Shown here: positions 27,365 to 43,752 of the stretch, piece by piece
How positions within the stretch are numbered: the first letter of the stretch is position 1
How the letters are laid out: each line of letters starts with the position of its first letter
Source of the DNA: Planctomycetota bacterium
GTDB lineage: Bacteria > Planctomycetota > B15-G4 > SIAN01
DNA length: 60,081 nucleotides
Direction: 5' to 3'
Assembly (NCBI GenBank): GCA_036732755.1
Contig: DAINBU010000006.1
Span: 26,688 to 86,768, forward strand
Program-made: the position numbers and the translations under genes
Notes under the pieces: model-generated
What the model was told of the DNA's origin: nothing
Database searches by the model: none
What the model saw: the letters and a program-made list of their open reading frames with translations, nothing else

Positions 27365-28396
27365 TCACTTATGGCATGCGGTGCACTGATCACCTTTGTC
27401 GGGATGGGGCAACGGCGCACCCTGTCCGTGGCACTGGCGGCAGTTCATCGCCGGCGAATGTCCCGGCGGCATCGGTGCCGCGAGCGCGTGGCTCGGCGCG
27501 CCGCGGTGGCAGACGATGCAGCCCGTCCCTCCGCCGAGCGGGAAGTGGCACGTGATGCAGTGGCGGTCCGACGGCGACCCCCAGCCCGCGCTGTGGCTGA
27601 GCGGCGCAGTCTGCGAGTGGCAGCGCTCGCACGCGTCGGCCTGGTGGCAGGTGGAGCAGCGGTCGCGGTTGACCGCGACCGCGACGCCGTGGCCGCGCCG
27701 CCGCCAGTAGTTCGTGTGGTCGTCGGGCAGCTCGGTCTGGTGGCACGTGGTGCAGGCGCTCCGCGCATGGCACATCGTGCAGCTCGCCGCCTCGGGGCTG
27801 CCGGCGCGCTGGACGGTGCGGCCGTGCTCGCGCTTCCAGTCGGTGGCGTGGCTCGGCGGCGCGCGGTCGGCGCGGATCTCCTTGTGACACACCGCGCAGT
27901 CGTTGCCCCACGCCGCTCCCCGCTCCGCGTTGCGCGCGTGGCAGGCGGTGCACTTCGCCATGGTCACGTGCACGTCGGCTGTGACCGCGTCGCTGCTCGC
28001 CACGCTGCCGTGGCACTCGGAGCACTCGATGTGCTCGGTGCTCGCGTGGAGGAGGTGCGAGAAGACGATCTCCGACGAGAGCTTCGTCAGGCTCGGCGCC
28101 TTGAGGACGTCGTTCTCGAAGAAGGCGGCCGCCTGCTTCTCCGGCGGCTTGTCGCGGTCGATCTCCTTGTGGCAGAGGCGGCACTGCTGGATCGAGGGCA
28201 TGCCGGGCGCGTCGGCGGTGAGCGCGTCGCGGTGGCAGCTCGCGCACTCGAGGCCGTCGTCCTCGCCGTGCCGCGCGTGGGGGAACGCGAGCCGCTCCGG
28301 CTCGCCCGACGAGCCGCCCATCCAGAGGCAGCCGCCGACGAGCGGCACCGCCACGAAGAGCGCGGCGCGGACGAGCCGTCGTCTCAGAAGGTCCAT
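27365..28396 (-). CDS. Periplasmic multiheme c-type cytochrome (about 13 CxxCH in 343 aa)
   Basis: The start MDLLRRRLVRAALFVAVPLVGGC lies at 28396; the 1108-aa ORF upstream of it is shadow. The haem density is very high: CASCH, CRLCH, CSECH, CTACH, CAVCH, CTMCH, CTTCH, CSTCH, CERCH, CITCH, CIVCH, CRQCH, CTACH. Confidence 0.75.
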   Translation of the reverse strand: MDLLRRRLVRAALFVAVPLVGGCLWMGGSSGEPERLAFPHARHGEDDGLECASCHRDALTADAPGMPSIQQCRLCHKEIDRDKPPEKQAAAFFENDVLKAPSLTKLSSEIVFSHLLHASTEHIECSECHGSVASSDAVTADVHVTMAKCTACHARNAERGAAWGNDCAVCHKEIRADRAPPSHATDWKREHGRTVQRAGSPEAASCTMCHARSACTTCHQTELPDDHTNYWRRRGHGVAVAVNRDRCSTCHQADACERCHSQTAPLSHSAGWGSPSDRHCITCHFPLGGGTGCIVCHRGAPSHALAAPMPPGHSPAMNCRQCHGQGAPLPHPDKGDQCTACHK

Positions 28397-29823
28397 GTCG
28401 CGCGCATCCTGACCGTCTGGTAGCGGTCGAAGGGGTCCTGCTCGTAGGTGTAGTCGATCCGCAGCCGCAGCTTCTTCGACGCCTTCCAGTCGAGTCCGGC
28501 GTAGTAGGTGCGCACGCGGTCGAGCTCCTTGGCCTGGAAGATGTCGTACTTGTAGAGCGAGTAGTTGGTCCCGACGTTCGCGTGCACCTCCTTCGAGAGG
28601 GCGTGGTCGAGCTCGCCGCCGACGCTGGTGATCCGCTCCGGCGTCGCGACCCACAGCTCGCCGGTGAGCGAGATCGTCGTGTCCTCGTCCGGCAAGCCGA
28701 GGAACATCGGAACGACGTAGAAGCGCTCGAAGTCGTGGTTGAAGGCGCCCTCGTCGCCGTCGTTCGTCACGCGCCTGAAGTCGACGCCGCCCGACAGGTC
28801 GAAGTGGTCGCCGAAGGCGTGGCCGGCGCTCGCCGCGATCTCGCGGTAGGGCCGGTACTCGAACGCCGACTGGAAGTAGGGGTCGAACTCGTAGGAGAGG
28901 CTCTCCTGCGTGTGCAGCAGCTGGTAGTAGGAGAGCTGCGCGCGCAGCTGCGCCTCGGGGTCGTTCCAGTTGCCGCGCACCTCGAAGTCGCGGCTCTCCG
29001 AAGAGAGCCAGGTGACGCGGCCGAACAGGTCGACGTGCTCGCCGACCTGCTGCCACTGCGAGAGCGCGAAGAGGTCGTCGTGGTGGTCGAGCAGGAGCGT
29101 CTGGTCGTCGACGTGCATGTAGTCGAAGCGCGTGCGGCCGCCGGTCCAGGCCCGCGCCTCGAGGAAGACGCCGAGGATCAGGTCGCCGGAGGGCGACGAT
29201 TCGTAGAGGTGCGAGGGGAGGCCGGCGTAGCCGCCGAGCCGGATCTTCGCCGCGGTCACCTCCTGCGTCTCGATGCGCGCGCCGTCGACGTAGGTCTGCA
29301 CCGGCGTGTCGTCGAGGAACCAGCGGCCGAGCTTCCACGACGCGACCGGCCCCGAGAGCGCCCCGCCCACCCACAGCTCGTAGAGCTGCGCCGTCAACTG
29401 GCTCTGGTAAGTGTCCTGGAGGCTGTCGAACGCGTAGTCGCCGGTGTGGTCGACGCCGTCGTCGAGGTCGAAGGCGCTGCGCGCGACGAGGTGCGCGGTG
29501 ACCGGCTGCGTCGCGGCGTCGCCGTAGTCGGCCGCGAGGAGGCCGTAGAGGTCCTGGTCGGTCGCCTCGGAGGTGTGGCGGAGGCGGTACTCGAGCGAGA
29601 AGCTGCCGGAGACGGCGAGCTCGTTGGTCCAGCGGCTCCAGGACGAGGGCGCGGGCGGCGGTCCGTAGGTCTCGGGGAGCTCGCTCTCCTGCGCGATTGC
29701 GCGTCCCGCGCCGAGCGCCGCGATGATCAGCACGAGCGCTGCGACGGGCAGCGCGCGCCCGGCGGCTACCCGGCGCGCGCGCCGCGAATGCACGGGCGAA
29801 TCGGGTCGTCCGCGCCCCTTCAT
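28384..29823 (-). CDS. Outer-membrane beta-barrel porin of a porin-cytochrome complex (MtrB/OmbB-like)
   Basis: The internal start MKGRGRPDSPVHSRRARRVAAGRALPVAALVLIIAALGAGRAIAQE provides the signal peptide. The body has alternating aromatic and hydrophilic beta-strands and a C-terminal RATWTF (terminal Phe). The stop overlaps the start of the periplasmic cytochrome by 13 nt. Confidence 0.6.
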   Translation of the reverse strand: MKGRGRPDSPVHSRRARRVAAGRALPVAALVLIIAALGAGRAIAQESELPETYGPPPAPSSWSRWTNELAVSGSFSLEYRLRHTSEATDQDLYGLLAADYGDAATQPVTAHLVARSAFDLDDGVDHTGDYAFDSLQDTYQSQLTAQLYELWVGGALSGPVASWKLGRWFLDDTPVQTYVDGARIETQEVTAAKIRLGGYAGLPSHLYESSPSGDLILGVFLEARAWTGGRTRFDYMHVDDQTLLLDHHDDLFALSQWQQVGEHVDLFGRVTWLSSESRDFEVRGNWNDPEAQLRAQLSYYQLLHTQESLSYEFDPYFQSAFEYRPYREIAASAGHAFGDHFDLSGGVDFRRVTNDGDEGAFNHDFERFYVVPMFLGLPDEDTTISLTGELWVATPERITSVGGELDHALSKEVHANVGTNYSLYKYDIFQAKELDRVRTYYAGLDWKASKKLRLRIDYTYEQDPFDRYQTVRMRATWTF

Positions 29824-29993
29824 CTCGGCCCCTTCTCCTCGGCGAAGGAGCGCAGCGTAGCACACCCCTGGCCTGCGTCGATCTCGTGGAGCGAAGCCGC
29901 CTCGCGCTCGAGCCCGCGGTCGTGCGCGACGCGGCGCCGCGCGCCGGAAGTCGCCGCCGGATCGCCCGCGAATCCACGACGGGACGCGCGCGT

Positions 29994-31469
29994 ATGCTGC
30001 GCCACATGACCGACCACGAACCGGACGCGGCCGCGGACCCGGCGCGCGCCGCTCGATTTCCCGTCATCACCGTCTTCACGAGCCATTGGCTCGCGATGAC
30101 CGGGCTCGGCCTGCTGGTCACGTCGATCATCGTCTGGGCCTGCCTCGTCACGGCGCGCCTGCGCCGCGGGCAGGAGAACCCGTACATCGGCGTCGCGACG
30201 ATCGCCGCGGCGGGCCTCTTCGTGCTCGGCCTGCTGATGACGCCGCTCGGACTGCACCTCGGGCGGCGGCGCCTCCGCAAGCGGCTGTCGGGCGTGCTCG
30301 CCGCCAGCTCGAACGCCTGGATGAAGCTCGGCGCATTCGTGGTCGCCGTCTCGCTCTTCAACCTCCTGATCGCGTCGCAGCTCACGCTGAGCGCCGTGCA
30401 CGCGATGGAGTCGCGGCAGTTCTGCGGCTCCTGCCACGTGATGACGCCGGAGCAGCGCGCCTTCGACCAGGGTCCGCACGCCGGCATCCTCTGCGTCGAC
30501 TGCCACGTCGGCAGCGGCGCCAAGGGCCTCATCGCCAGCAAGATCCAGGGCACCAAGCAGCTGATCGCGGTCCTCACCGACAAGGTCCCCAAGCCGATCG
30601 TCGGGGCGATCGAGACGGGGCACATCATCCCGAGCAACGAGACGTGCGAGCAGTGCCACTGGAAGCAGATGCCGGCCAATGCGTCGCTCAAGTTCTTCGT
30701 GCGCTACGGCGACGACGAGGCCAACACGCCCGAGATGACGCTCCTCACCATGAACGTCGGCGGCGAGCTGATGGGCGGCGTCCACGGCTCCCACCACGGC
30801 AGGGGCATCTCGGTCCGCTTCGTCGCCTCCGACAGGAAGCGCATGGAGATCCCGCTCGTCGAGCACGAGAACCAGGCGACCGGGAAGACGAAGACCTTCG
30901 TGAAGACGGGGCGGAACGCGGCCGAGTTCGCCGGACAGCCGCGCATCACCATGCAGTGCTTCGACTGCCACAGCCGCCCCGCGCACTCCTTCGTTCAGGC
31001 CGACGAGGCGGTCGACCGCGCGATCATGCTCGGCCGCATGTCCTCGACGCTGCCCTTCGTGAAGAAGACGGCGGTCGAGATCCTGAAGGCGGGCTACGCG
31101 GACAGCGCGGCGGCGGCGGCGGCGATCCCCGCGGCCGTCGCGGCGTACTACAAGGAGAACCATGCGGAGCTCGCGACCAAGCGCGCGGCCGACGTCGAGG
31201 AGGCGGGACGGGTCGTCGCCGAGCTCTACTCGCGCAACGTCTTCCCCGAGTACGGCGTCGACTGGGGCACCTATCCCAACCAGCTCGGCCACACGAACAC
31301 GCCCGGCTGCTTCCGCTGCCACGACGGAGAGCACGCGACCGCCGACGGCGAGAAGATCACCAACGACTGCTTCAAGTGCCACTTCCCGTCGGCGGTCGAC
31401 GAGCAGAAGCCGGAGGTGCTGAAGCTCCTCGGCCTCGACTCGATGCTGAACAAGCTCCGCAAGAAGTGA
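29994..31469 (+). CDS. Membrane-anchored multiheme c-type cytochrome (6 CxxCH; candidate inner-membrane quinol:cytochrome oxidoreductase)
   Basis: Two N-terminal TM helices (FPVITVFTSHWLAMTGLGLLVTSIIVWACLV and IGVATIAAAGLFVLGLLMTPLGL) are followed by CGSCH, CVDCH, CEQCH, CFDCH, CFRCH, CFKCH. It is divergent from the porin-cytochrome operon. Confidence 0.65.
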   Translation: MLRHMTDHEPDAAADPARAARFPVITVFTSHWLAMTGLGLLVTSIIVWACLVTARLRRGQENPYIGVATIAAAGLFVLGLLMTPLGLHLGRRRLRKRLSGVLAASSNAWMKLGAFVVAVSLFNLLIASQLTLSAVHAMESRQFCGSCHVMTPEQRAFDQGPHAGILCVDCHVGSGAKGLIASKIQGTKQLIAVLTDKVPKPIVGAIETGHIIPSNETCEQCHWKQMPANASLKFFVRYGDDEANTPEMTLLTMNVGGELMGGVHGSHHGRGISVRFVASDRKRMEIPLVEHENQATGKTKTFVKTGRNAAEFAGQPRITMQCFDCHSRPAHSFVQADEAVDRAIMLGRMSSTLPFVKKTAVEILKAGYADSAAAAAAIPAAVAAYYKENHAELATKRAADVEEAGRVVAELYSRNVFPEYGVDWGTYPNQLGHTNTPGCFRCHDGEHATADGEKITNDCFKCHFPSAVDEQKPEVLKLLGLDSMLNKLRKK

Positions 31470-35026: not shown

Positions 35027-35360
35027 CGGAGTCTCCACGCAGCGGGGCGAGGCGGAGACTCTAGCGGGCGCGACGACGCTCAGCGCGCCGTCGGCGCAGC
35101 GCTCTCCTCGTCCGCCGACAGGGCGCGCGTGAGGACGCGGCAGTTCGACCACGCGAGCACCGACCCGAACATCCCCGCGAGCCAACCGTGCCGTCGCCGG
35201 GTGACGAGCTGCAGGCGTCCGGCTTCGCACGTCCTGCAGATCAGTTCATCGTGGGCGGAATCCTCGAAAGTCCGCGAACCCCGCTGCGACCGCGCACCAG
35301 ACGGACTCGAGTGCGAGAGTCGACGCGCGGTCCGCTTCCTGATCGCGGCGCGGGACTGCT

Positions 35361-35741
35361 TCAAGACGCCGACTGTTCGATGCTGGGTGGAGGGATCAAG
35401 TTGACGTCGATGTCGCGCTCGAACCTCTCGAGGGTTCCGTTGGAGCGCAGCACCTCCGTGATGGCGTCCAGGCGATTCATCGCCCTCCATGCCACCCAGT
35501 AACCGACCAGCCCGTATCCCGCGACAAGGGATCCGAGCAAGATCCACCAAGACGCGGTTTCATGCGCTGTCGCAAACGACATCGCGACGAAGATCCCGAC
35601 GGGCACGAGGTTGAAGATCTGATTCCTCAATCCGTTCGACGACCAATCCTGCTGCGCGACCTTGACCACGCTCATCCGACGCTTCGTCTCGCGGAGGATT
35701 CGCGTCGCCTGCCACTTCGGCAAGTCGCTTCCAGGTTGCAT
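35361..35741 (-). CDS. Small membrane protein (hypothetical)
   Basis: The internal start MQPGSDLPKWQ is preceded by GGAGAG. It has two hydrophobic helices (IFNLVPVGIFVAMSFATA and WWILLGSLVAGYGLVGYWVAW). It lies in the locally lower-GC segment at about 35.3-36.7 kb. Confidence 0.35.
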   Translation of the reverse strand: MQPGSDLPKWQATRILRETKRRMSVVKVAQQDWSSNGLRNQIFNLVPVGIFVAMSFATAHETASWWILLGSLVAGYGLVGYWVAWRAMNRLDAITEVLRSNGTLERFERDIDVNLIPPPSIEQSAS

Positions 35742-35770
35742 GGAACTCTCCACGACGGGCGGCTGCGATT

Positions 35771-36034
35771 TCATCCAGTGACTGCCAGTTTCTCGGCCGC
35801 CGGCGGCGACCGCCAGTGCGTCGCGCAAAACCTCTCCATCGCTCGGACGCGTCGGTCGACCCGCCATTCCGAAACGGCCAGGACGAGGAGTCCGATCGGC
35901 ATCGAAACGCCGAGCAGGATCGCCATCCCCGTCCCGATCCCGGCCTTGGTCGCGATTCGAATGAATACGAACCGTGCTACAGCCGTCGTCACGAACGACG
36001 TGACAGGCACGACGAGCGCGTGATCCCAGTTCAT
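35771..36034 (-). CDS. Small membrane protein (hypothetical, 87 aa)
   Basis: The start is MNWDHALVVPVTSFVTTAVARFVFIRIA. It has two hydrophobic helices. It is lower-GC, on the same strand as its neighbours, and separated from them by short gaps. Confidence 0.35.
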   Translation of the reverse strand: MNWDHALVVPVTSFVTTAVARFVFIRIATKAGIGTGMAILLGVSMPIGLLVLAVSEWRVDRRVRAMERFCATHWRSPPAAEKLAVTG

Positions 36035-36072
36035 GATTGCATCTCTCGCTTCACGCGCGCGCGCATCGGGAT

Positions 36073-36684
36073 TCAATCGTCGACGGACCAGACTGGCTGC
36101 TCCGACGAGCGATGCAGCACGAAGCCGTCCGACATGTAGTCGCCGACCGACAAGGACCAGTGGCGTCCATCGTCGCGCGATTCGTAGTCCCAGCCGCCGA
36201 ACCGATTCCATGCCGGATGGACGCCGGCGTCCTCGAGCCGGGCCGGGTACGCGTCCTTGACGGCGCGATGACTCTCCAGCGCGGCGACGATCCGATCCCC
36301 CTCTTTCCGAAGATCCTGGTGCGACGTCCCGAACTGCATGTACACCGCGACAAGCGCGAGAACCGTCGCCGACGCACCGATGCAGACCCGACGCCAACGC
36401 GGTGTTCCGAGTCCGGTCTTCGCGAGCGATGCAGCGAGACCGACCACGAGCCCTCCCGTGACCCAGACCAGAGTCCTCACCCGGTCCTGCGCGACGAGCA
36501 CGTCGGCGCCGACGATCCCCGCGAGCGCGAGGAGGACGAACGCCCAACTTCCGATGGATGACCTCGAACGTGATCTTGTCCCGATCGGCAGGTCACTTGG
36601 CAGATTCACCCCTTCATGCTTCAGCACTCGCACGACGGGGACCTCGCGATCAGCGTGCGGATCGCCGCGCGGCGAATCCTTCAT
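36073..36684 (-). CDS. Membrane protein (hypothetical), ATGA-coupled to the upstream ECF-sigma fusion gene
   Basis: The start MKDSPRGDPHADREVPVV at 36684 overlaps the TGA of the 907-aa gene. It has three hydrophobic helices followed by a soluble tail (HRAVKDAYPARLEDAGVHPAWNRFGGWDYESRDDGRHWSLSVGDYMSDGFVLHR). The upstream part of the 488-aa ORF is shadow. Confidence 0.45.
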   Translation of the reverse strand: MKDSPRGDPHADREVPVVRVLKHEGVNLPSDLPIGTRSRSRSSIGSWAFVLLALAGIVGADVLVAQDRVRTLVWVTGGLVVGLAASLAKTGLGTPRWRRVCIGASATVLALVAVYMQFGTSHQDLRKEGDRIVAALESHRAVKDAYPARLEDAGVHPAWNRFGGWDYESRDDGRHWSLSVGDYMSDGFVLHRSSEQPVWSVDD

Positions 36685-39404
36685 CTCGGCCGCGATTCCA
36701 GAGGCTCGAGGACGACGTCGATCTTGTCCGATGCGGGAGCGTCGAAGTCGACACGACGCTCGTGGAAGCCGGTTCGAGACGCGATCGCCGTGTAGCGTCC
36801 CGGGCACAGCGTCGCCGTGAATTCGTCGATCGCGTCCGAGTCGGGCCGCCACGCTCTCCAGAGATTCTCGACGGGGATCCCGTCGTGATCGAGAATCTGG
36901 AAGTGGAGCGCCGGCCTGCCCTCGGCGAGCGGCGGCGCGACGTGGAATCGGGCCGGGACCCCAACCGCGCAGCGTGCCTCGATGTCCGGGAACGATTCGG
37001 CCGCGACGAAGCGCACGACGCCGGGCGCCTCGTCCGGGAAGCCTGACACGACGAAGACGTGTTCGCCCTTCGCCAGCGCGTCGAATTCGAATTCGCCGTC
37101 GGGATTCGAGACGACGTCGTGGACGTGCGTCGCGATGAGCCCCTGGGTCGTCACTCGATACGCGGCGATCGGCGCCTTGCCGAACGGGCTCCCGTCCGCG
37201 TGCCGCGCGACTCCATGGACCCCGCCGCGGGCGCGCGGGATCTCGAGCGTCAGCGGCTCCGATCCGGGCAGCTGCGAGGTATCGACCGGGAAGATGCTGA
37301 CGGCGTGGCCGCTGATCTCCGCTTCGATCAGGATGGGACCGGGATCGCATCCGTAGCGAACCACTCCCTTCCTCGGATCCCCGTCGTCGCGGATCGTCGC
37401 GATGATCCGCTCGCCGTTCGAGCCCTGCGGCAGGTAGCGCTCGTGCGACAGGTCGATCGGGTCCTTCGATTCCGCATCGACGAAGCGGACCGCGAAAGTC
37501 GCCGCGACGGATTCCTTCGGGACCTTCGCCGTATCGCACGGGAGATCGGGAGCGCGCGCGAGGTCGCGAAGCGGAACGGTGCCGACGACAGCGTCGGCGA
37601 TCCTCAATTCGAGCGCGCCCCGGAAGCCGTCATGAACGACGACTTCGTACTGCCCCTTCACGTAGTCGATCCGGCCCTCGACGGGCTTGCTGGAATCGTC
37701 GACTGCAGTGGTCGAGCGCGACACCGCCTCGGAGCCGACCGCGAATACGGCGGCCTTCGCGGCCCGGCCTTCCGGCGTCCGAGCCGCGAAGTGCTCGACG
37801 AGGAACGGCTCGAGGGCCAGGGGGAGGCCGGTCGTGTCGACGATGCGCCCGCGCACGATTGTTCCCGGCCGGCGTTGCATCGTGATGTCGAGATCCGCAG
37901 CGGTCGCGTGCGGCTTGATCTCGATCTTGGTCGGACGCTTTCGCAGGAACCCCGGCACCTTGCAGTCGAATTCGATCAGATCACCGCAGTAGAAGCCGAA
38001 GTCGAACTGTCCGACAGAATCGCCGGACACCTTCGTGCGGATCGTCCCGCCGATGCGGCGAGGCGGGCAGCGCGAGACGAACGTCAAGAGCGCATTCCCG
38101 ATCGGAACGCCGTCCTCGTCGTGCACCTTCCCGCGAATGACCAGTCCCGGGATGAGCGGGACGTCCACCTCGTGTTCGACGTGCTCGCGATCGAAGCTGT
38201 GGATGTCGGTGACGGTCGCTCCCACGCTCTGGTCGTACGCGCCGATCGACCAGCCGGGGATCGTCGAGAGGTCGGTGAACTCGTAGATCCCGCCGGCGCC
38301 GCTCCTCGTCGCGATCCATATGTCGCCGGCCCGCTGGTCCGATGGCCGATTCGCTTCGGCCGCCGCGGGGACCGAGAACTCCGGCATCGTGTAGTTGATT
38401 TGGTGGGACGAGGAAGGGATCGCCCAGACGAACGCATCGGAAACCGGGTTCCCATCGCGATCCTTGACGATCCCATGGATCCTTCCCGTTCGCGCCGCGC
38501 GCTTTGGCGGCGGCGGCGCGAGTGCAGGCGTCGGTTCGACCGAACGAGCGACGTCGGGAGTGCGCGACGACCCGTTCGCCGCAGCCAGAGGTGCGGCGTC
38601 GGAAACCGGCGTGACCCGCGCGGCGGCCGCGTCCGTGACGCGGAATTCCCGATGAGCCTTCTCCCACCACCACCACCCCGCCCCCGCCGCCGCGACGACC
38701 GCCGCCCCGACCAGCACCCTCCGCGTCGTCTGCAGCGCCGCGGTCCGTCCGAAGCCGCGGGAGACGGCGGAGCTGCCATGGGCTCCTCCGTCTCCCGCGA
38801 TGGACGGACGGTCGGCGCTCGCGGCGATGTCGCGCAGGCGGGACAGCAGGAGCGCCTGCGCCGCCACCCCTTCGTGGGCGGTGCCGCGCGTCTCCTCGTC
38901 CACCCGGCGCTCGAGGAGCTCGCGTACTCGCAGGACGCCGCGCCGGATTCGCGTCCGCACGGTGTCCTCACCGGTCTTGGTGAGGCGTGCGATCGCGGCG
39001 ACCTCCTGCTCTTCGAAGAAGCGCAGGATGACCGTGCTCCGGTACGGTTCGTCCAAGGCGAGCACGCACTCCACGACTTTGCGGCGCAGCTCGGCGCGCG
39101 CGACCGCTTCGACCGGACTCTCGACCGGCGGCGGCGGGGGGAGCGCGACTTCACGAGCGGCGCGCGCAGTGTCGCTGCGTGCGGCCGACCGCACGACGTT
39201 CTTCGCCACCGTCCCCAGCCAGCCGCGCAGGTTGCCCGTGTGCCGCGGCGGCCGGGCGAGGGCCGTGGCGAGGGTCTGCTGCACGACGTCGTCGATGTCG
39301 GCCTCGTTGGCCACGAGCGCGCGCGCGAACTTCGCGAGCCACGCGCTGTGCGAGAGCAACGTCGTCGCGTCGAGCGCGAGCGAGGGGGGTGGGAAGTCGG
39401 TCAT
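36681..39404 (-). CDS. ECF sigma factor fused to a transmembrane segment and a large extracytoplasmic region with CarbopepD_reg-like beta-sandwich repeats (907 aa)
   Basis: The N-terminus has sigma-70 region 2 (DIDDVVQQTLATALARPPRHTGNLRGWLGTVAKNVVR) and region 4 (LDEPYRSTVILRFFEEQEVAAIARLTKTGEDTVRTRIRRG). A TM segment follows (VLVGAAVVAAAGAGWWWW). After it come at least four repeats of the type GRIHGIVKDRDGNPVSDAFVWA, IRGKVHDEDGVPIGNALLTF, VRGRIVDTTGLPLA and VHGVARHADGSPFGKAPI. It is a single uninterrupted frame. Confidence 0.65.
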   Translation of the reverse strand: MTDFPPPSLALDATTLLSHSAWLAKFARALVANEADIDDVVQQTLATALARPPRHTGNLRGWLGTVAKNVVRSAARSDTARAAREVALPPPPPVESPVEAVARAELRRKVVECVLALDEPYRSTVILRFFEEQEVAAIARLTKTGEDTVRTRIRRGVLRVRELLERRVDEETRGTAHEGVAAQALLLSRLRDIAASADRPSIAGDGGAHGSSAVSRGFGRTAALQTTRRVLVGAAVVAAAGAGWWWWEKAHREFRVTDAAAARVTPVSDAAPLAAANGSSRTPDVARSVEPTPALAPPPPKRAARTGRIHGIVKDRDGNPVSDAFVWAIPSSSHQINYTMPEFSVPAAAEANRPSDQRAGDIWIATRSGAGGIYEFTDLSTIPGWSIGAYDQSVGATVTDIHSFDREHVEHEVDVPLIPGLVIRGKVHDEDGVPIGNALLTFVSRCPPRRIGGTIRTKVSGDSVGQFDFGFYCGDLIEFDCKVPGFLRKRPTKIEIKPHATAADLDITMQRRPGTIVRGRIVDTTGLPLALEPFLVEHFAARTPEGRAAKAAVFAVGSEAVSRSTTAVDDSSKPVEGRIDYVKGQYEVVVHDGFRGALELRIADAVVGTVPLRDLARAPDLPCDTAKVPKESVAATFAVRFVDAESKDPIDLSHERYLPQGSNGERIIATIRDDGDPRKGVVRYGCDPGPILIEAEISGHAVSIFPVDTSQLPGSEPLTLEIPRARGGVHGVARHADGSPFGKAPIAAYRVTTQGLIATHVHDVVSNPDGEFEFDALAKGEHVFVVSGFPDEAPGVVRFVAAESFPDIEARCAVGVPARFHVAPPLAEGRPALHFQILDHDGIPVENLWRAWRPDSDAIDEFTATLCPGRYTAIASRTGFHERRVDFDAPASDKIDVVLEPLESRPR

Positions 39405-39541
39405 GCGGCCCTTGAATGCACCCGAGAGCCGTTTCCGTTCAGCCCCCGGCGAAGCCGCCGATGTACCGCGCCCCCTATTAATGAGGAAGGCGCCCTTCCC
39501 TCGACCCGGGGGAGGGGCGCCTCGAGCTCATCCGTCGTGGT

Positions 39542-40540
39542 TCACTCGATGAACAGGTCGAGGACGGTGACGTCGCCCGCCGCGATCTGCACCCCGGTCG
39601 CCGACTTCTGCTTGGCGTCCTTCACGGCCAGCACGTCGTAAGTGCCCGGTGAGAGTCCGAGCACGGCGTAGCTGCCGGTGGCGACCGACGCCGTCGTTGT
39701 GACGGCCAACGTGAGGTCGGTCTCGCCCGGCGGCAGGACGTAGATCGTCGCGACGTCGACGCCCTTCTGCCCTCCCGCGCCGTCGTCCTCCGTGATCGTC
39801 CCGTTCAGGTCGCCCGTATCGACGCGGGTGGTCGCGCGGATGCCCGGCCGGACCAGGAACCGGGTGGCGTTCAACGGATCGTCGCACGGGACCGGGATGA
39901 ACGTCTTCGAGAGGTCGAAGTCGAGCAGGATCGGGATCTCTTCGCCCGCGACCACCTCGAGCGGCGGTTTGAAGAAGACCTTGAGCCCGATCTTGTTCGC
40001 GTGGGTCAGGTCGAGGTTGCCTTCGGCCGTCGAGTAGACGTTCCCGTTCGTCAGCGTGAGCTTCGCGTCGTCGATGTAGAGGCGCGCCACCCGATACGAG
40101 CCGGCCGGAATCTCGCCGGTCGCGAAATGGGCGCTGATGCCGTCGCGCAGGTCGAGGAGGCTCACCACGATCCCGGGACCGGGATAGAGCACGAACTCTG
40201 CGTGGTCGCCGTGGTGCCCGTCGTCGTCGTCGTCGTCGTCGTCGTGCCCGTCGTGGTCGTCGTGCTCGTCGTCGTCGTCTTCACCCTGGTCGTCGTCGTC
40301 CTCGTCGTCGTGGTCCCCGCCGTCCTGCTTCTCCCCCTCGTCGTCGTCGTCGTCGCTGCGGCTCAGCGTGATCTTGGTCACGTGCACGAGCGCTTCCTGG
40401 ACGAGGTCGAGGTCGAAGCGCTTGTCGGTGACGAGGACCTTCACTCGGCCCATGCCCCCTGAACCCCCGCCGCCTCCGCATGCCGCCGCGAGCAGGACGA
40501 GCCCGACCAGCCCGAACGACCCACGTGTCGCGAGTCCCAT
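39542..40540 (-). CDS. DUF4382-like lipoprotein with a poly-Asp/His/Glu low-complexity insert
   Basis: The internal start MGLATRGSFGLVGLVLLAAACGGGGGSG carries a lipobox and is preceded by a GGGAG RBS. A 60-aa acidic tract (SDDDDDEGEKQDGGDHDDEDDDDQGEDDDDEHDDHDGHDDDDDDDDGHHGDH) is encoded by GAC/GTC trinucleotide runs. It then continues into a beta-rich domain. Confidence 0.6.
   Translation of the reverse strand: MGLATRGSFGLVGLVLLAAACGGGGGSGGMGRVKVLVTDKRFDLDLVQEALVHVTKITLSRSDDDDDEGEKQDGGDHDDEDDDDQGEDDDDEHDDHDGHDDDDDDDDGHHGDHAEFVLYPGPGIVVSLLDLRDGISAHFATGEIPAGSYRVARLYIDDAKLTLTNGNVYSTAEGNLDLTHANKIGLKVFFKPPLEVVAGEEIPILLDFDLSKTFIPVPCDDPLNATRFLVRPGIRATTRVDTGDLNGTITEDDGAGGQKGVDVATIYVLPPGETDLTLAVTTTASVATGSYAVLGLSPGTYDVLAVKDAKQKSATGVQIAAGDVTVLDLFIE
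40190..40345. repeat. Trinucleotide (GTC/GAC)n simple-sequence tract encoding the poly-Asp insert
   Basis: A run of cgtcgtcgtcgtcgtcgtcgtcgtg with flanking GTCGTC/GTGGTC units lies inside the lipoprotein CDS. Confidence 0.6.
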
Positions 40541-40802: not shown

Positions 40803-41813
40803 ATGAGCGCCAAGAAGATCTGCTTCGACCGCATCCTCCCGCGCGACCTCGCGCTCCCGCACCGCGCGCTGTCGCAGGGCCCGCTGCGGCCGTCGCGCGC
40901 AATATCTCCGCGCAACAAGCAGTGGCCCAACGGTGCGACGCTCACGGTCGCGTTCAAGGGGGGCTCGAGCACGCAGCAGCAGATGGTCCGGCAGTACGCG
41001 CCCGAATGGACCGAGTACGCCAACCTCAGGTTCGACTTCGTCACGACCCCCAACGCGAAGATCCGCGTCGCCTTCGACGCCAACGACGGCGCGTGGTCCT
41101 ATGTCGGGACCGACAACCTCGAGATCCCGATCGACGCCGCGACGCTCAACCTCGGCTGGCAGGACAAGGCCGTGATCCTGCACGAGTTCGGCCACATGGT
41201 CGGCTTCGCGCACGAGCACCAGAACCCCCAGGGCGGGATCACGTGGAACGAGGCGGCGGTGATCGCGGACCTGAGCGGCGCGCCCAACTACTGGGACGAG
41301 TCGACCATCCGGCACAACGTGATCGAGAAGTACAGTCTCGACCAGATCTACGGCACCGCCTTCGACGCGCAGTCGATCATGCTCTACGCCTTCCCGGCGT
41401 CGTGGACGATCGGCGGGAGCGGGACGCACGAGAACACCGACCTCTCGGCGACCGACAAGTCCTTCGTCGGCGGCCCGCAGATGTACCCGGGCCAGCAGGC
41501 GGACGCGGTGACCGAGATCCCGGTCCAGAAGGCGCTCGCCGCCGCCATCTCGAACGCGGGCGAGCAGGACACCTTCAAATTCGTCGTCGCCGCCGCCGGC
41601 AACTACGTGATCGAGACGGGCGGCTCGACCGACGTGATCACCTCGCTCTACGGCCCCAACTCGATGACCAAGCTGATCGCGCGCGACGACGACTCGGGCG
41701 CCGGCGCCAACTCGCGCCTCGAGGCGGCCCTGCAGCCGGGCACCTACTACCTGCAGATCCGCCACTACAGCTCGGTCGGGACCGGCCCCTACAAGGTCTG
41801 GATCGCGGGCTGA
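40803..41813 (+). CDS. Astacin-like (M12A) zinc metalloprotease with a C-terminal pre-peptidase (PPC) domain
   Basis: HEFGHMVGFAHEHQNP is the astacin HExxHxxGxxH motif. A Met-turn region follows (SIMLYAF). The C-terminal PPC-like end is DTFKFVVAAAGNYVIETGG...YYLQIRHYS. The start is MSAKKICF at 40803. Confidence 0.7.
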   Translation: MSAKKICFDRILPRDLALPHRALSQGPLRPSRAISPRNKQWPNGATLTVAFKGGSSTQQQMVRQYAPEWTEYANLRFDFVTTPNAKIRVAFDANDGAWSYVGTDNLEIPIDAATLNLGWQDKAVILHEFGHMVGFAHEHQNPQGGITWNEAAVIADLSGAPNYWDESTIRHNVIEKYSLDQIYGTAFDAQSIMLYAFPASWTIGGSGTHENTDLSATDKSFVGGPQMYPGQQADAVTEIPVQKALAAAISNAGEQDTFKFVVAAAGNYVIETGGSTDVITSLYGPNSMTKLIARDDDSGAGANSRLEAALQPGTYYLQIRHYSSVGTGPYKVWIAG

Positions 41814-41859
41814 GACGTCCGTCCCCGTCCGCTTTTCGCATTGCTCGACGGAGAACGAC

Positions 41860-43752
41860 GTGACCCAACTGCGCGTGCTCGGCCTGCACGGGGTCGGCGA
41901 CCACCACACCGACTCCGCCTGGAAGGAGCAGTGGAGCGACGCGATCGAGGCCGCGCTGCGCCGCTGGGACCCGTCGCTCTCCGTCGAATGCGAGCTCCCG
42001 GTCTACGACGATCTCTTCTCCGATCCGCGCTGGAAGCTCGATCCCCTCCGCTACGCCCAGGCCGTCGGGAAGATGACCGCGAGCGGCGTCACCGTCGGCC
42101 TCGAGACGATCGGCGAGAAGATCGGCGACGCCTTCGGCCGGATCGGCGACGAGATCGGCAGCTGGTTCCGTCCGTCGCGCGACCTCGCCTCCCTCCCCAA
42201 CGAGCTGCGCTGGACTGCCGGCATGGTCGTCCAGTGGGCCGACTACGACGAGCTGCGCAAAGCGGCGCGCGCGTGGCTGGCGAAGCAGCTCGCGGGCGGG
42301 CCCTTCGACGTCGTGGTCGCGCACAGCCTCGGCTCCCTCATCGCCTACGACACCTTCATCCACGGTCAGGCGCTGCTGACCGGCGCGACGATGGTCGCAC
42401 TGTTCGGGTCGCAGGTCGGCAACCCGTTCGTGCGCGACACCCTGGGCGGCTACCTCGTCCCGCTGAAGAGGCCGCGCGCGTGGTTCCAGCTGTTCAATCC
42501 CAACGACCGCGCCTTCTCGGCGCCGATCCGCGTGCCGTCCGACCCGAAGTTCCGCCGCGTCGCGACGCCCTTCCGCGACGGCTTCCTGAGCCACGACGCG
42601 GTGCGCTACCTCTCCCATCCCGAAGCGGTCGGCGGCTTCTGGAGCGCCGTCGTCGCGGCGCGGCCCGGGGTCAAGGGGTTCGCGCCGATCCGCCACGCGC
42701 TCGCCGCGTTCGACGCGACGCTCGCGCCGGCGGGCCGGGACCGCAAGGTCGTGGCGGGGAAGCGCGCCGCGCCGAACCGGAGAGCGCTGCTGGTCGGGAT
42801 CAACGACTACCCCGATCCGGCCAACCGGCTCGACGGCTGCGTCAACGACGTCTTCCTGATCAGCGCCGCGCTGCAGGAGAGCGGCTTCAAGCCCGAGGAG
42901 ATCCGCGTCGTCTTCGACGGGCGCGCCACGGCGCAGGGGATCCTCGAGCGGGTGCGCTGGCTGCTCGACGGCACGCGCGACGGCGACGAGCGCGTCCTGT
43001 TCTACAGCGGCCACGGCGCGCAGATCCCCGGCTACGGCTCGAGCCTCGAGGTCGACCACCTGACGGAGTGCCTCGTCCCCCACGACTTCGACTGGACCGA
43101 GGAGCACGCGATCACCGACGCGCAGCTCGCCGAGCTCTACAGCCAGCTCCCGTACGAGAGCCGCTTCGTCGCGATCTTCGACTGCTGCCACTCGGGAGGG
43201 ATGTCGCGCGACGGCGGCGCGAAGGTGCGCGGCATCACGCCGCCCGACGACGTGCGCCACCGCGCGCTGCGCTGGGATCCCGGCGAGGAGATGTGGGTCG
43301 CGCGCGACTTCAAGCCGATCACCTCCGACCGCGACGTGCTCGGCGACGCCGAGCGGCGCAAGAGCTACGTCGGCGCGAGCGGCGCGAGCTACCGGCTCGG
43401 CCGCGGCATGGCGGTGCGCTCGCTCGACCGCGCCGACAAGAAGCGGCAACGCGACGCGGTCGGCAGCCGCGGGCCGTTCCTCCCAATGATCCTCGAGGCG
43501 TGCGCCGAGCAGGAGCTCGCGTACGAGTACCGCCACGGCGTCACTTCGTACGGCGCCTTCACCTTCTCCCTCACCAAGGAACTGCGCGACGCGCGCCGGG
43601 CGACGGGCCGCAAGGGGATCGACTTCGCCGGACTGATGAAGAAGACGACGGCGCGGCTGCACCGGCTCGACTACGACCAGACGCCCGCGCTGGTCGGCCC
43701 GACCGCGCTCACGCGCATCGCGATCCCGTGGACGAAAGGGTCCGTGCGCTGA
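41860..43752 (+). CDS. Fusion of an alpha/beta-hydrolase-like domain (GxSxG) and a caspase/metacaspase (peptidase C14) domain
   Basis: The N-terminal half has DVVVAHSLGSLIAY (nucleophile elbow). The C-terminal half has LLVGINDYPDPANRLDGCVNDV, FYSGHGAQ and FDCCHSGG, which form the caspase His/Cys dyad context. The start is GTG at 41860, with GGAG 8 nt upstream. Confidence 0.7.
   Translation: MTQLRVLGLHGVGDHHTDSAWKEQWSDAIEAALRRWDPSLSVECELPVYDDLFSDPRWKLDPLRYAQAVGKMTASGVTVGLETIGEKIGDAFGRIGDEIGSWFRPSRDLASLPNELRWTAGMVVQWADYDELRKAARAWLAKQLAGGPFDVVVAHSLGSLIAYDTFIHGQALLTGATMVALFGSQVGNPFVRDTLGGYLVPLKRPRAWFQLFNPNDRAFSAPIRVPSDPKFRRVATPFRDGFLSHDAVRYLSHPEAVGGFWSAVVAARPGVKGFAPIRHALAAFDATLAPAGRDRKVVAGKRAAPNRRALLVGINDYPDPANRLDGCVNDVFLISAALQESGFKPEEIRVVFDGRATAQGILERVRWLLDGTRDGDERVLFYSGHGAQIPGYGSSLEVDHLTECLVPHDFDWTEEHAITDAQLAELYSQLPYESRFVAIFDCCHSGGMSRDGGAKVRGITPPDDVRHRALRWDPGEEMWVARDFKPITSDRDVLGDAERRKSYVGASGASYRLGRGMAVRSLDRADKKRQRDAVGSRGPFLPMILEACAEQELAYEYRHGVTSYGAFTFSLTKELRDARRATGRKGIDFAGLMKKTTARLHRLDYDQTPALVGPTALTRIAIPWTKGSVR

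Follow-up and report, generated by a model that had tools for sequence, protein, structure and literature searches.

The locus examined here raises the question of how a sigma factor that is joined in a single polypeptide to a membrane anchor and a large outer domain might be controlled, and of how this outer domain and the small genes trailing it came to depart in composition from their surroundings. It lies in a 60,081-nucleotide stretch of contig DAINBU010000006.1 from a Planctomycetota bacterium (hereafter the window) and consists of a fusion gene, coding for an extracytoplasmic function (ECF) sigma factor with a transmembrane (TM) helix and an extracytoplasmic part, and of three small open reading frames (ORFs) directly downstream, which we call g2, g3 and g4 (Table 1). 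The reading that we favor, and to which we assign a probability of roughly 60%, is that the fusion protein is a self-contained (‘one-component’), membrane-anchored ECF sigma factor that would be activated by proteolytic release, by analogy with fused sigma/anti-sigma proteins. Additionally, a comparison with relatives indicates that the codons for its ectodomain were replaced by a divergent homologous allele via recombination, with the sigma core staying orthologous.

A sequence-only reading, made from the DNA without database searches, had described the fusion gene as a sigma region 2/4 module joined without a stop to a Trp-rich TM segment. This is borne out by a single 907-codon frame and by Pfam matches of its product to Sigma70_r2 (32.4 bits, cutoff 24) and Sigma70_r4_2 (29.5 bits, cutoff 25.7). 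With about 30 residues separating sigma-2 from sigma-4, and no other sigma regions (sigma-3, sigma-1.1) detected in the fusion protein by Pfam, it has the domain makeup of an ECF (group 4) sigma factor. Among the NCBIfam models, TIGR02937 (sigma70-ECF) reaches 42.7 bits where 42.9 is the cutoff, reflecting generic ECF similarity, and every ECF subfamily model falls far under its cutoff (e.g. Sig-70_gvs1, 43.5 against 124.6). In a phmmer search against PDB sequences, SigL, SigH, SigE, SigW and SigK match residues 17-181.

About 55 residues past sigma-4 the chain reaches the segment VLVGAAVVAAAGAGWWWW (residues 230-247), with RR before it and EKAHRE after it. Its mean Kyte-Doolittle value, calculated by hand, is ~1.48, slightly under the script threshold of 1.5, and it is plausibly a weak TM helix. 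It closes with WWWW, encoded by (TGG)4 at 38664-38675 on the (-) strand, and a conserved GGWWWW is seen at this point in much of the family alignment. The helix comes after the cytoplasmic part and is followed by a large extracytoplasmic domain of ~657 residues, close to the roughly 650 residues first estimated for the outside region. By the positive-inside rule the predicted topology is sigma inside, one TM helix, and the large domain outside.

The family to which this protein belongs was defined by a search of 5.8 billion proteins, which returned 24 further full-length relatives (898-921 residues, 33-57% identity) and ~48 more distant ones (575-1511 residues). All of these have the sigma Pfam domains and nearly all have CarboxypepD_reg or related beta-sandwich families; where source labels are given, they are mostly ‘Planctomycetes bacterium’ metagenome-assembled genomes (MAGs), with Saltatorellus ferox and a single Myxococcales MAG besides. 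The 24-sequence family alignment was used to build an AlphaFold2 model (mean predicted local distance difference test score, pLDDT, of 74), in which the helices of the sigma part reach to residue 172 and are followed by a helix at 178-196, a disordered stretch at 198-232 and a further helix at 233-261. The extracytoplasmic part is led in the model by a Pro/Ala-rich disordered spacer (residues ~248-305), beyond which most of residues 306-905 are all-beta with a pLDDT of 80-95. By our own division of the model they form about six beta-sandwich units, at residues 306-412, 418-509, 515-612, 635-722, 727-811 and 816-898. Internal and family-segment profile searches recover four weak copies of a GxIxGxVxDxxGxPV start motif, at residues 306, 422, 516 and 726; these agree with the original count of four or more repeats, and the six units of the model are the better count. 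The original naming of the repeats after CarbopepD_reg holds for CarboxypepD_reg (PF13620), matched in two stretches (59 bits, cutoff 32.3) of which that at residues 729-787 is the best, and does not hold for CarbopepD_reg_2 (PF13715), where Pfam gives only E = 0.11. Foldseek matches of the ectodomain in the PDB are to tandem Ig/CnaB-like pilins, the B. anthracis TIE protein and the MG domains of alpha-2-macroglobulin, and the modeled fold is a generic ‘beads on a string’ without a functional hint. The ectodomain is nonetheless evidently constrained, functional and under purifying selection, because the ratio of nonsynonymous to synonymous divergence (dN/dS) over residues 251-907 is 0.32 between the window and the related contig L010, and because the 24-member alignment has invariant columns of Gly, Trp and Asp all along the ectodomain.

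The further proposal that the protein has the topology of a sigma/anti-sigma pair fused into one chain survives as far as the topology goes (sigma in, one TM helix, large domain out) and fails in that no anti-sigma domain was detected; ‘fused anti-sigma’ is a topological analogy and not a demonstrated homology. Only ~55 residues separate sigma-4 from the TM helix, and these hold one conserved helix of ~19 residues, EGVAAQALLLSRLRDIAAS, defined by the AlphaFold2 model and the family alignment. In this linker helix A182, L190 and A194 are invariant, and A181, A184, L185 and L186 nearly invariant, among 24 family members. It appears more conserved than a passive tether needs and could be a candidate minimal cis-inhibitory, cis-regulatory or docking helix. 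At the equivalent position, just past sigma-4, the distant fused ECF sigma factors P0027, P0039, P0046, P0049 and P0059 show R(D/G)(A/S)W and a hydrophobic run (e.g. RDAWCLLLVGV and RRGWLAALAPFAG), a hint that the wider class of ECF-TM-beta-sandwich proteins has an element just past sigma-4 in common. On another contig, L006 (1350-5922), the family member P0008 lies directly after a conventional ECF sigma factor (175 residues), an 888-residue zf-HC2 anti-sigma factor and a 438-residue protein. The anti-sigma factor was considered as a ‘split’ version of the fusion and rejected, being unrelated to the fusion ectodomain (BLASTP E > 3), and the adjacent 175-residue sigma factor is only weakly similar.

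In autoregulated promoters of ECF sigma factors the -35 element contains AAC and the -10 element resembles CGT. The motif TGAACGGAAACGGCTCTCGGGTGCATT, which ends 10 nt before the ATG of the fusion gene, looks like a putative promoter of this type for a sigma-g2-g3-g4 operon with a nearly leaderless transcript. The pattern TGA(A/C)C-N18-(G/C)C(A/G)TT, ending 10-14 nt before the ATG, is found upstream of 10 distinct family genes and is kept by paralogs that share 33-46% protein identity and whose intergenic regions do not align otherwise; TGAACC...GGCA(A/T) variants stand before more distant fused ECF genes. A position weight matrix made from the family sites scores 29.7 at TGAACGGAAACGGCTCTCGGGTGCATT as against at most 8.1 elsewhere in the window, and the exact pattern TGAAC-N18-GC(A/G)TT occurs once in the window versus 0.17 times expected by chance. 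The visible targets of such a promoter in the window would be the fusion gene and g2-g4 only. A sigma-70 promoter consensus scan found nothing in 34.9-41.2 kb. Just past the stop of the upstream DUF4382 gene, a GC-rich hairpin with the following U-rich tract UUCCUCAUUAAU is a probable terminator that would insulate the sigma operon. The RNA fold of 39545..39455 has a free energy of -42.1 kcal/mol with a z-score of only -1.9, and a terminator consensus scan of 34.9-41.2 kb did not call the hairpin because its T-tract is imperfect.

With these parts in hand, the favored one-component reading can be set out in steps. At rest the sigma factor would be held at the inner membrane, possibly also restrained by the linker helix, while the stalk of about six domains, with its ~55-residue flexible spacer, would reach into the periplasm and sense a cue. 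This cue would trigger site-1 cleavage outside the membrane, and a subsequent intramembrane (RseP-type) cleavage of the Ala/Gly-rich TM helix would free the sigma factor, which would then recruit RNA polymerase to TGAAC-N18-GCATT promoters. Its own promoter would be among these targets, giving positive feedback and co-expression of g2-g4, and the exchangeable ectodomain would set which signal is sensed. The Ala/Gly-rich composition of the TM helix, compatible with a site-2 protease substrate, is the sole observation here in support of site-1/site-2 proteolysis. None of g2-g4 occurs downstream of any family member outside the lineage of the window, and they are therefore not conserved sigma partners; the downstream neighbors also differ among contigs L006, L007, L008 and L009, and the lack of a conserved downstream partner gene is consistent with a self-contained system. 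Several points weigh on the other side. Pfam detects no anti-sigma domain (zf-HC2, RskA, FecR or similar) between sigma-4 and the TM helix at E<=1, and for this reason there is no evidence of sigma inhibition beyond tethering. The TM helix is only marginally hydrophobic, AlphaFold2 confidence is low both at this helix and in sigma-2, and across the family the locus has no linked gene for a protease. The promoter motif was derived from 10 distinct sites, and g3 and g4 are possibly not genuine genes.

The alternative that survives best holds that the C-terminal part is not a sensor: a sigma-2/sigma-4 duplicate would have been inserted by accident into an already existing gene of a secreted protein, and the sigma factor would be inert, or active while permanently tethered to the membrane. 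Exactly this origin has been proposed for planctomycete ECF sigma factors that combine conserved sigma regions with unrelated C-terminal extensions (PMC7671368), and both the missing anti-sigma domain and the discordant histories of the N- and C-terminal parts within the family speak for it. However, the extension is homologous and collinear in all 24 members (~900 residues, 25-49% identity), the ectodomain is under purifying selection by the dN/dS given above, and the linker and TM helices are retained across the family. At the syntenic locus described below, moreover, it is the ectodomain that changed and not the sigma factor that moved, and the conserved promoter motif argues that the sigma factor is in use; we accordingly consider such an accident of insertion unlikely.

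The preferred reading, a self-contained sigma factor released by proteolysis, has close relatives among known systems, and the architecture as such is that of a planctomycete-type ECF sigma factor with a transmembrane C-terminal extension, a kind already known, which would hardly surprise an ECF specialist. ECF sigma factors with built-in regulatory extensions have been likened to ‘one-component systems’ of the sigma world, of which few have been studied experimentally (PMC8999054), and among the regulatory types of ECF sigma factors C-terminal regulatory extensions rank second in frequency, with 19 of 157 groups (PMC7826278). For fused sigma/anti-sigma proteins, activation by proteolysis has precedents in IutY (by Prc and RseP) and SCO4117 (ECF52), with ECF48 and ECF53 expected to behave alike (PMC8999054). 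IutY of Pseudomonas putida (ECF243) is likewise a single chain with an N-terminal ECF sigma factor, one TM helix, an outside sensor and no separate anti-sigma gene. It differs in that it carries an anti-sigma domain, of the FecR type, and works in siderophore signaling together with a TonB-dependent receptor (PMC8999054), whereas the fusion protein has no detected anti-sigma domain, six beta-sandwich repeats and no adjacent TonB receptor. SCO4117 of Streptomyces coelicolor (ECF52), together with ECF48 and ECF53, shares the long C-terminal TM extension, the Pro-rich outer linker and the beta-rich outer domain, which in this type is carbohydrate-binding, with proteolytic activation proposed (PMC8999054). 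Unlike the fusion protein, with its single TM helix and no zf-HC2 match, these actinobacterial proteins have a zinc-finger (ZAS-like) anti-sigma domain and more than one TM helix.

Extension-bearing ECF sigma factors such as ECF57 are present in many copies in Planctomycetes. ECF57 (formerly ECF01-Gob) and the clusters described by Pinto & da Fonseca 2020 (PMC7671368) resemble the present family in the phylum label, in several paralogs per genome, in a very long extension and in a far better conserved sigma core. The published description of ECF57 includes WD40-like repeats and a pair of conserved cysteines that connect sigma-2 with sigma-4 (PMC8999054). In the fusion protein there is no WD40 match in Pfam, with AlphaFold2 and Foldseek showing an Ig/CnaB-like beta-sandwich, and in place of paired cysteines the sigma core has the single Cys C113, where the family consensus is Ala; it is by these two described features only that the fusion is set apart from ECF57. 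Pinto & da Fonseca explained planctomycete ECF paralogs with conserved sigma regions and divergent extensions by duplication and fortuitous insertion (PMC7671368). In contrast to their clusters, the extensions here are all mutually homologous, and the discordance appears to come from ectodomain replacement at a syntenic locus, not from sigma insertion. No paper tying ECF sigma factors to carboxypeptidase-regulatory-like extensions was found in a full-text literature search of incomplete coverage, which is weak evidence of novelty, and no planctomycete protein with a beta-sandwich stalk is among the experimentally studied extension ECF sigma factors named in the literature searched. The family could offer a test case for sigma release without a recognizable anti-sigma domain; its clean, conserved architecture and predicted self-promoter could be used to define a regulon, and as a source of candidate orthogonal membrane-anchored sigma switches it has modest practical value.

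The replacement of the ectodomain emerges from the comparison with contig L007 (and its duplicate, contig L013), which is syntenic with the window across the genes for a Band_7 protein, the caspase-like peptidase, the astacin, the DUF4382 lipoprotein, the fusion protein and an amidohydrolase. Over the sigma core (residues 1-175) the two fusion proteins are 98% identical, with a nonsynonymous divergence (dN) of 0.017 and a synonymous divergence (dS) of 0.085. Over the linker and TM helix (residues 176-250) they are 92% identical (dN 0.042, dS 0.108), and over the ectodomain (residues 251-907) they are 43% identical (30-58% per 50-residue window), with dN 0.52 and dS 1.05. The flanking amidohydrolase is again 94% identical (dN 0.031, dS 0.082). 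At the DNA level, identity to L007 drops from ~97% to ~50% within ~60 nt, directly past the four TGG codons at ~38660, and returns ~10 nt past the g4 stop in the window, a point that in L007 lies ~20 nt behind the stop of the sigma gene. As similarity resumes right after these two stops, L007 is without g2-g4. We infer allele replacement because the twelve-fold jump in dS is impossible by protein-level selection, and the atypical, exchanged segment would thus start at the end of the TM codons inside the sigma gene, not at the sigma stop. The new element of this locus is in our view this evolutionary one, an extracytoplasmic module that, judging from synonymous divergence, was exchanged together with its trailing genes at a syntenic locus, with a breakpoint at the membrane boundary. 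Such exchange refines the published explanation of divergent planctomycete extensions, and the family provides a natural experiment, with sensors of only ~43% identity attached to sigma cores that are nearly identical.

The exchanged segment is also marked by its composition. The trio g2-g4 (1.3 kb) has a GC content of 0.638 versus a window mean of 0.718 (standard deviation 0.027 over 1.3-kb windows) and is the lowest-GC 1.3-kb stretch in the whole window, so that the GC plot is not uniform and the downstream block is indeed less GC-rich, as had been noticed by eye. At third codon positions the GC content (GC3) is 0.775 in g2, 0.773 in g3 and 0.804 in g4, versus 0.960 +/- 0.017 (minimum 0.926) in 14 neighboring genes. 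The fusion gene has a GC3 of 0.859 overall, with 0.91 over codons 1-200 and ~0.85 over codons 300-907, and the ectodomain allele of L007 is low too (0.82-0.83). The GC anomaly is real, is not explained by amino-acid content and begins inside the sigma gene.

It might be argued that the downstream block owes its low GC content not to horizontal acquisition but only to the amino acids that small membrane proteins contain, or to its ORFs not being genes at all. In g4 the first and second codon positions are low as well (GC1 0.54, GC2 0.46), g3 and g4 are without homologs, and long chance ORFs occur in every frame at 72% GC. We nevertheless judge this explanation improbable, since the deviation is pronounced at GC3, where amino acids do not dictate composition, the syntenic L007 lacks the block and L010 has part of it replaced, the g2 family counts 176 representatives and g2 itself has a dN/dS below 1, and all three ORFs have the coding-like pattern GC3 > GC1 > GC2. 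The downstream block has two marks of a horizontally exchanged genomic islet, an atypical composition that includes synonymous sites and a presence that varies between conserved flanks. The initial idea of a horizontally acquired downstream cassette is correct in the atypical composition and in the block being absent or different in L007 and L010; it needs amending in that the trio is not one cassette and the segment begins inside the sigma gene.

Far less probable still is rapid diversifying selection acting on the ectodomain in place, without recombination. Exposed sensor domains often evolve fast, and an ectodomain 43% identical beside a sigma core 98% identical would suit such a process, but a ~12-fold higher dS and an identity switch confined to ~60 nt do not, and within one allele (window versus L010) the dN/dS of 0.32 denotes purifying selection. 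Comparable discordance between the N-terminal (residues 1-175) and C-terminal (residues 301-907) parts recurs among family pairs, with identities of 98% versus 43% in P0001/P0002, 98% versus 41% for P0018 against P0020 and P0021, and 96% versus 46% in P0004/P0005. Concordant close pairs also exist, e.g. P0020/P0021 and P0008/P0009. A second case at the DNA level was sought in contigs L014, L018 and L019, which are too divergent or frameshifted.

Different relatives carry different combinations of ectodomain and trailing genes. Contigs L010 and L011 match the window at 96% identity over the ectodomain and g2, as far as 20 nt beyond the stop of g2 (36053), and carry in place of g3-g4 an unrelated gene for a 173-residue protein with a lipoprotein-like signal; in L010 this is followed by an intact gene for a 126-residue Zn-ribbon membrane protein and an IS3-type transposase. 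In contig L012 a different ectodomain allele is followed by the Zn-ribbon gene, a pair of small ORFs and a homolog of g2. On this comparison g2 travels with the ectodomain allele of the window and occurs elsewhere (L010, L011, L012), and g3-g4 are a separate replacement specific to the lineage. Because an IS3-type transposase adjoins the locus in L010, the data suggest that the variable locus is a hot spot for insertion and rearrangement; the transposase is an IS3-family orfA (HTH_Tnp_1) with the start of orfB, at 3925-4442 of L010, directly downstream of the variable locus. In the window itself no convincing mobility genes or flanking repeats were found, only short imperfect repeats common in GC-rich DNA. 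A 21-nt, 81% inverted pair (35327-35347 and 36645-36665) was considered as a flanking repeat and is regarded as chance.

A more far-reaching possibility, which we put forward tentatively and would not bet on, is that the locus is a modular device. Strains would trade the whole sensor and its accessory genes as one piece, through homologous recombination that has its anchor in the conserved sigma/TM codons and its breakpoint at (TGG)4, and old, highly divergent alleles (dS ~1) would be kept circulating on a nearly identical sigma core. The (TGG)4, a short repeat in a conserved stretch, may favor crossover. The N/C discordance recurs in at least three independent pairs. If the possibility were true, balancing or frequency-dependent selection on the sensed cue would be implied, e.g. 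phage, predator or competitor cues or surface polymers, and the locus would be a ‘sensor-swapping’ locus for a transcription factor. It is this part that we consider worth pursuing.

The weakest alternative, that the fusion is false and a sequencing or assembly error hides separate sigma and anti-sigma genes, can be dismissed: the identical 907-residue protein is found on at least 13 independent contigs from four sources (NCBI, JGI, ENA and Logan), four of which, themselves independent, have the same gene order, there is no stop codon at the sigma/extension junction in any of the 24 aligned family members, every listed relative is at least 575 residues long with a sigma domain, and nothing was found in its favor beyond a frameshift after residue 189 on contig L018, past which homology resumes in another frame. 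Separate sigma and anti-sigma genes were looked for in the relatives, and the 24 and ~48 relatives are all fused, as the sequence-only reading of a single protein had it. The L018 contig (338-1437) is a low-coverage metagenome contig, and its frameshift is an assembly error or a pseudogene and no evidence of a naturally split sigma factor. A hydrophobic stretch past sigma-4 is also present in sampled distant members. The paralog P0008 (46% identity overall) comes from the same ENA sample as P0001, and the two are for that reason probably in one genome; in another MAG two family members lie ~5 kb apart. A species-genome scan gave only one match, an irrelevant CarboxypepD_reg in an acidobacterial genome (L001), and the PADLOC and PHROGs profiles (for defense systems and phages) gave nothing significant for the fusion protein or g2-g4.

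Table 1. Features of the sigma fusion locus, in positions of the window
Feature	Position	Strand	Remarks
Fusion gene	36681..39404	(-)	907 residues; ATG at 39404 to TGA at 36681, one ORF
ECF sigma core	38931..39353	(-)	sigma-2 at residues 18-78, sigma-4 at residues 108-158
Linker helix, EGVAAQALLLSRLRDIAAS	38817..38873	(-)	conserved, predicted cytoplasmic; residues 178-196
Single TM helix (plausible)	38664..38717	(-)	residues 230-247; last four codons TGG x4 (Trp)
Extracytoplasmic part (predicted)	36684..38663	(-)	residues 248-907; disordered spacer, then about six beta-sandwich domains
Strain-variable low-GC3 segment	35351..38663	(-)	ectodomain codons and g2-g4, between flanks 91-94% DNA-identical to L007
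Putative ECF-type promoter motif, TGAACGGAAACGGCTCTCGGGTGCATT	39415..39441	(-)	-35 TGAAC, 18-nt spacer, -10 GCATT
GC-rich hairpin, then UUCCUCAUUAAU (probable terminator)	39486..39523	(-)	just past the stop of the upstream DUF4382 gene; coordinates by eye
g2	36073..36684	(-)	203 residues; cytoplasmic N-tail, three hydrophobic segments, ~85-residue C-terminal domain
g3	35771..36034	(-)	87 residues; two hydrophobic segments; orphan ORF, predicted coding only
g4	35361..35774	(-)	137 residues (126 from an internal ATG); two hydrophobic segments; orphan ORF
Zn-ribbon membrane-protein gene remnant	35106..35269	(-)	decayed; by comparison with L007, L010, L012 and L013

The three small membrane-protein ORFs first noticed downstream are present with the hydrophobic segments listed in Table 1, those of g3 being read as two from four overlapping peaks of the hydrophobicity script. 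The ATGA coupling claimed between the fusion gene and g2 can be read directly at 36684..36681; 38 nt separate g2 from g3, and a second ATGA (35774..35771) joins the g3 stop to the g4 start, which some gene callers place 11 codons later. An exhaustive HMMER search gave 176 cluster representatives for g2 at E<=1e-3, mostly matching residues ~100-202; most of these are proteins of 80-200 residues that cover the last TM segment and the C-terminal domain, with a consensus of roughly EG..lv.ALE.Y....G.YP..L..AG..P.WN.fGGW.Y...dG..w.LsVGDY..DGFvL..SS....W..D. Nine of ten sampled matches are without a Pfam family, the tenth, a low-complexity repeat protein, having a weak sub-threshold TTR-52 match, and g2 has no match at E <= 10 among PDB sequences. 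Its dN/dS of 0.55 versus L012 and 0.79 versus L010 indicates weak constraint. By this conservation g2 is evidently a real gene of a widespread family that lacks a name. For g3 and g4 there is no homolog outside the cluster of each (at least 90% identity), whose members differ by only 1-4 residues. Assignments of the trio to DUF6962, 8xMP, BacteriocIIc_cy, SCO7613_CTERM or LIC_10190 were rejected, all being far below the Pfam or NCBIfam cutoffs.

In L007, L010, L012 and L013 the Zn-ribbon gene, coding for a two-TM membrane protein of the CxxC...CxxC kind, is intact (126-129 residues) and is the common neighbor downstream of the sigma gene. The window has a remnant of it, which has lost its ATG by a 4-nt deletion and a further ~153 nt by an in-frame deletion.

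Among the neighboring genes, the one directly upstream of the fusion gene (39542-40540 (-)) codes for a DUF4382 protein with a C-terminal CarboxypepD_reg-like domain. It contains a low-complexity insert of ~50 residues rich in Asp, Glu and His, DDDDDEGEKQDGGDHDDEDDDDQGEDDDDEHDDHDGHDDDDDDDDGHHGDH, which accounts for a strong AT-skew dip at 40.1-40.5 kb, and it may bind metals; a longer gene call starts with MGLATRGSFGLVGLVLLAAAC, a lipoprotein signal. A DUF4382 gene is also found near the family member in L009. Divergent from the DUF4382 and sigma genes, at 40803-43752 (+), are genes for an astacin-type metalloprotease with a PPC domain (336 residues) and a caspase-like Peptidase_C14 protein (630 residues), which are kept in the syntenic L007 and are not beside other family members. 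Across the amidohydrolase and glyoxalase genes from the sigma locus, at ~27365-31469 and beyond, lies a multihaem c-type cytochrome cluster (Cytochrom_NNT, Cytochrome_C7, MtrC/MtrF-like and Paired_CXXCH), which suggests a capacity for extracellular or periplasmic electron transfer.

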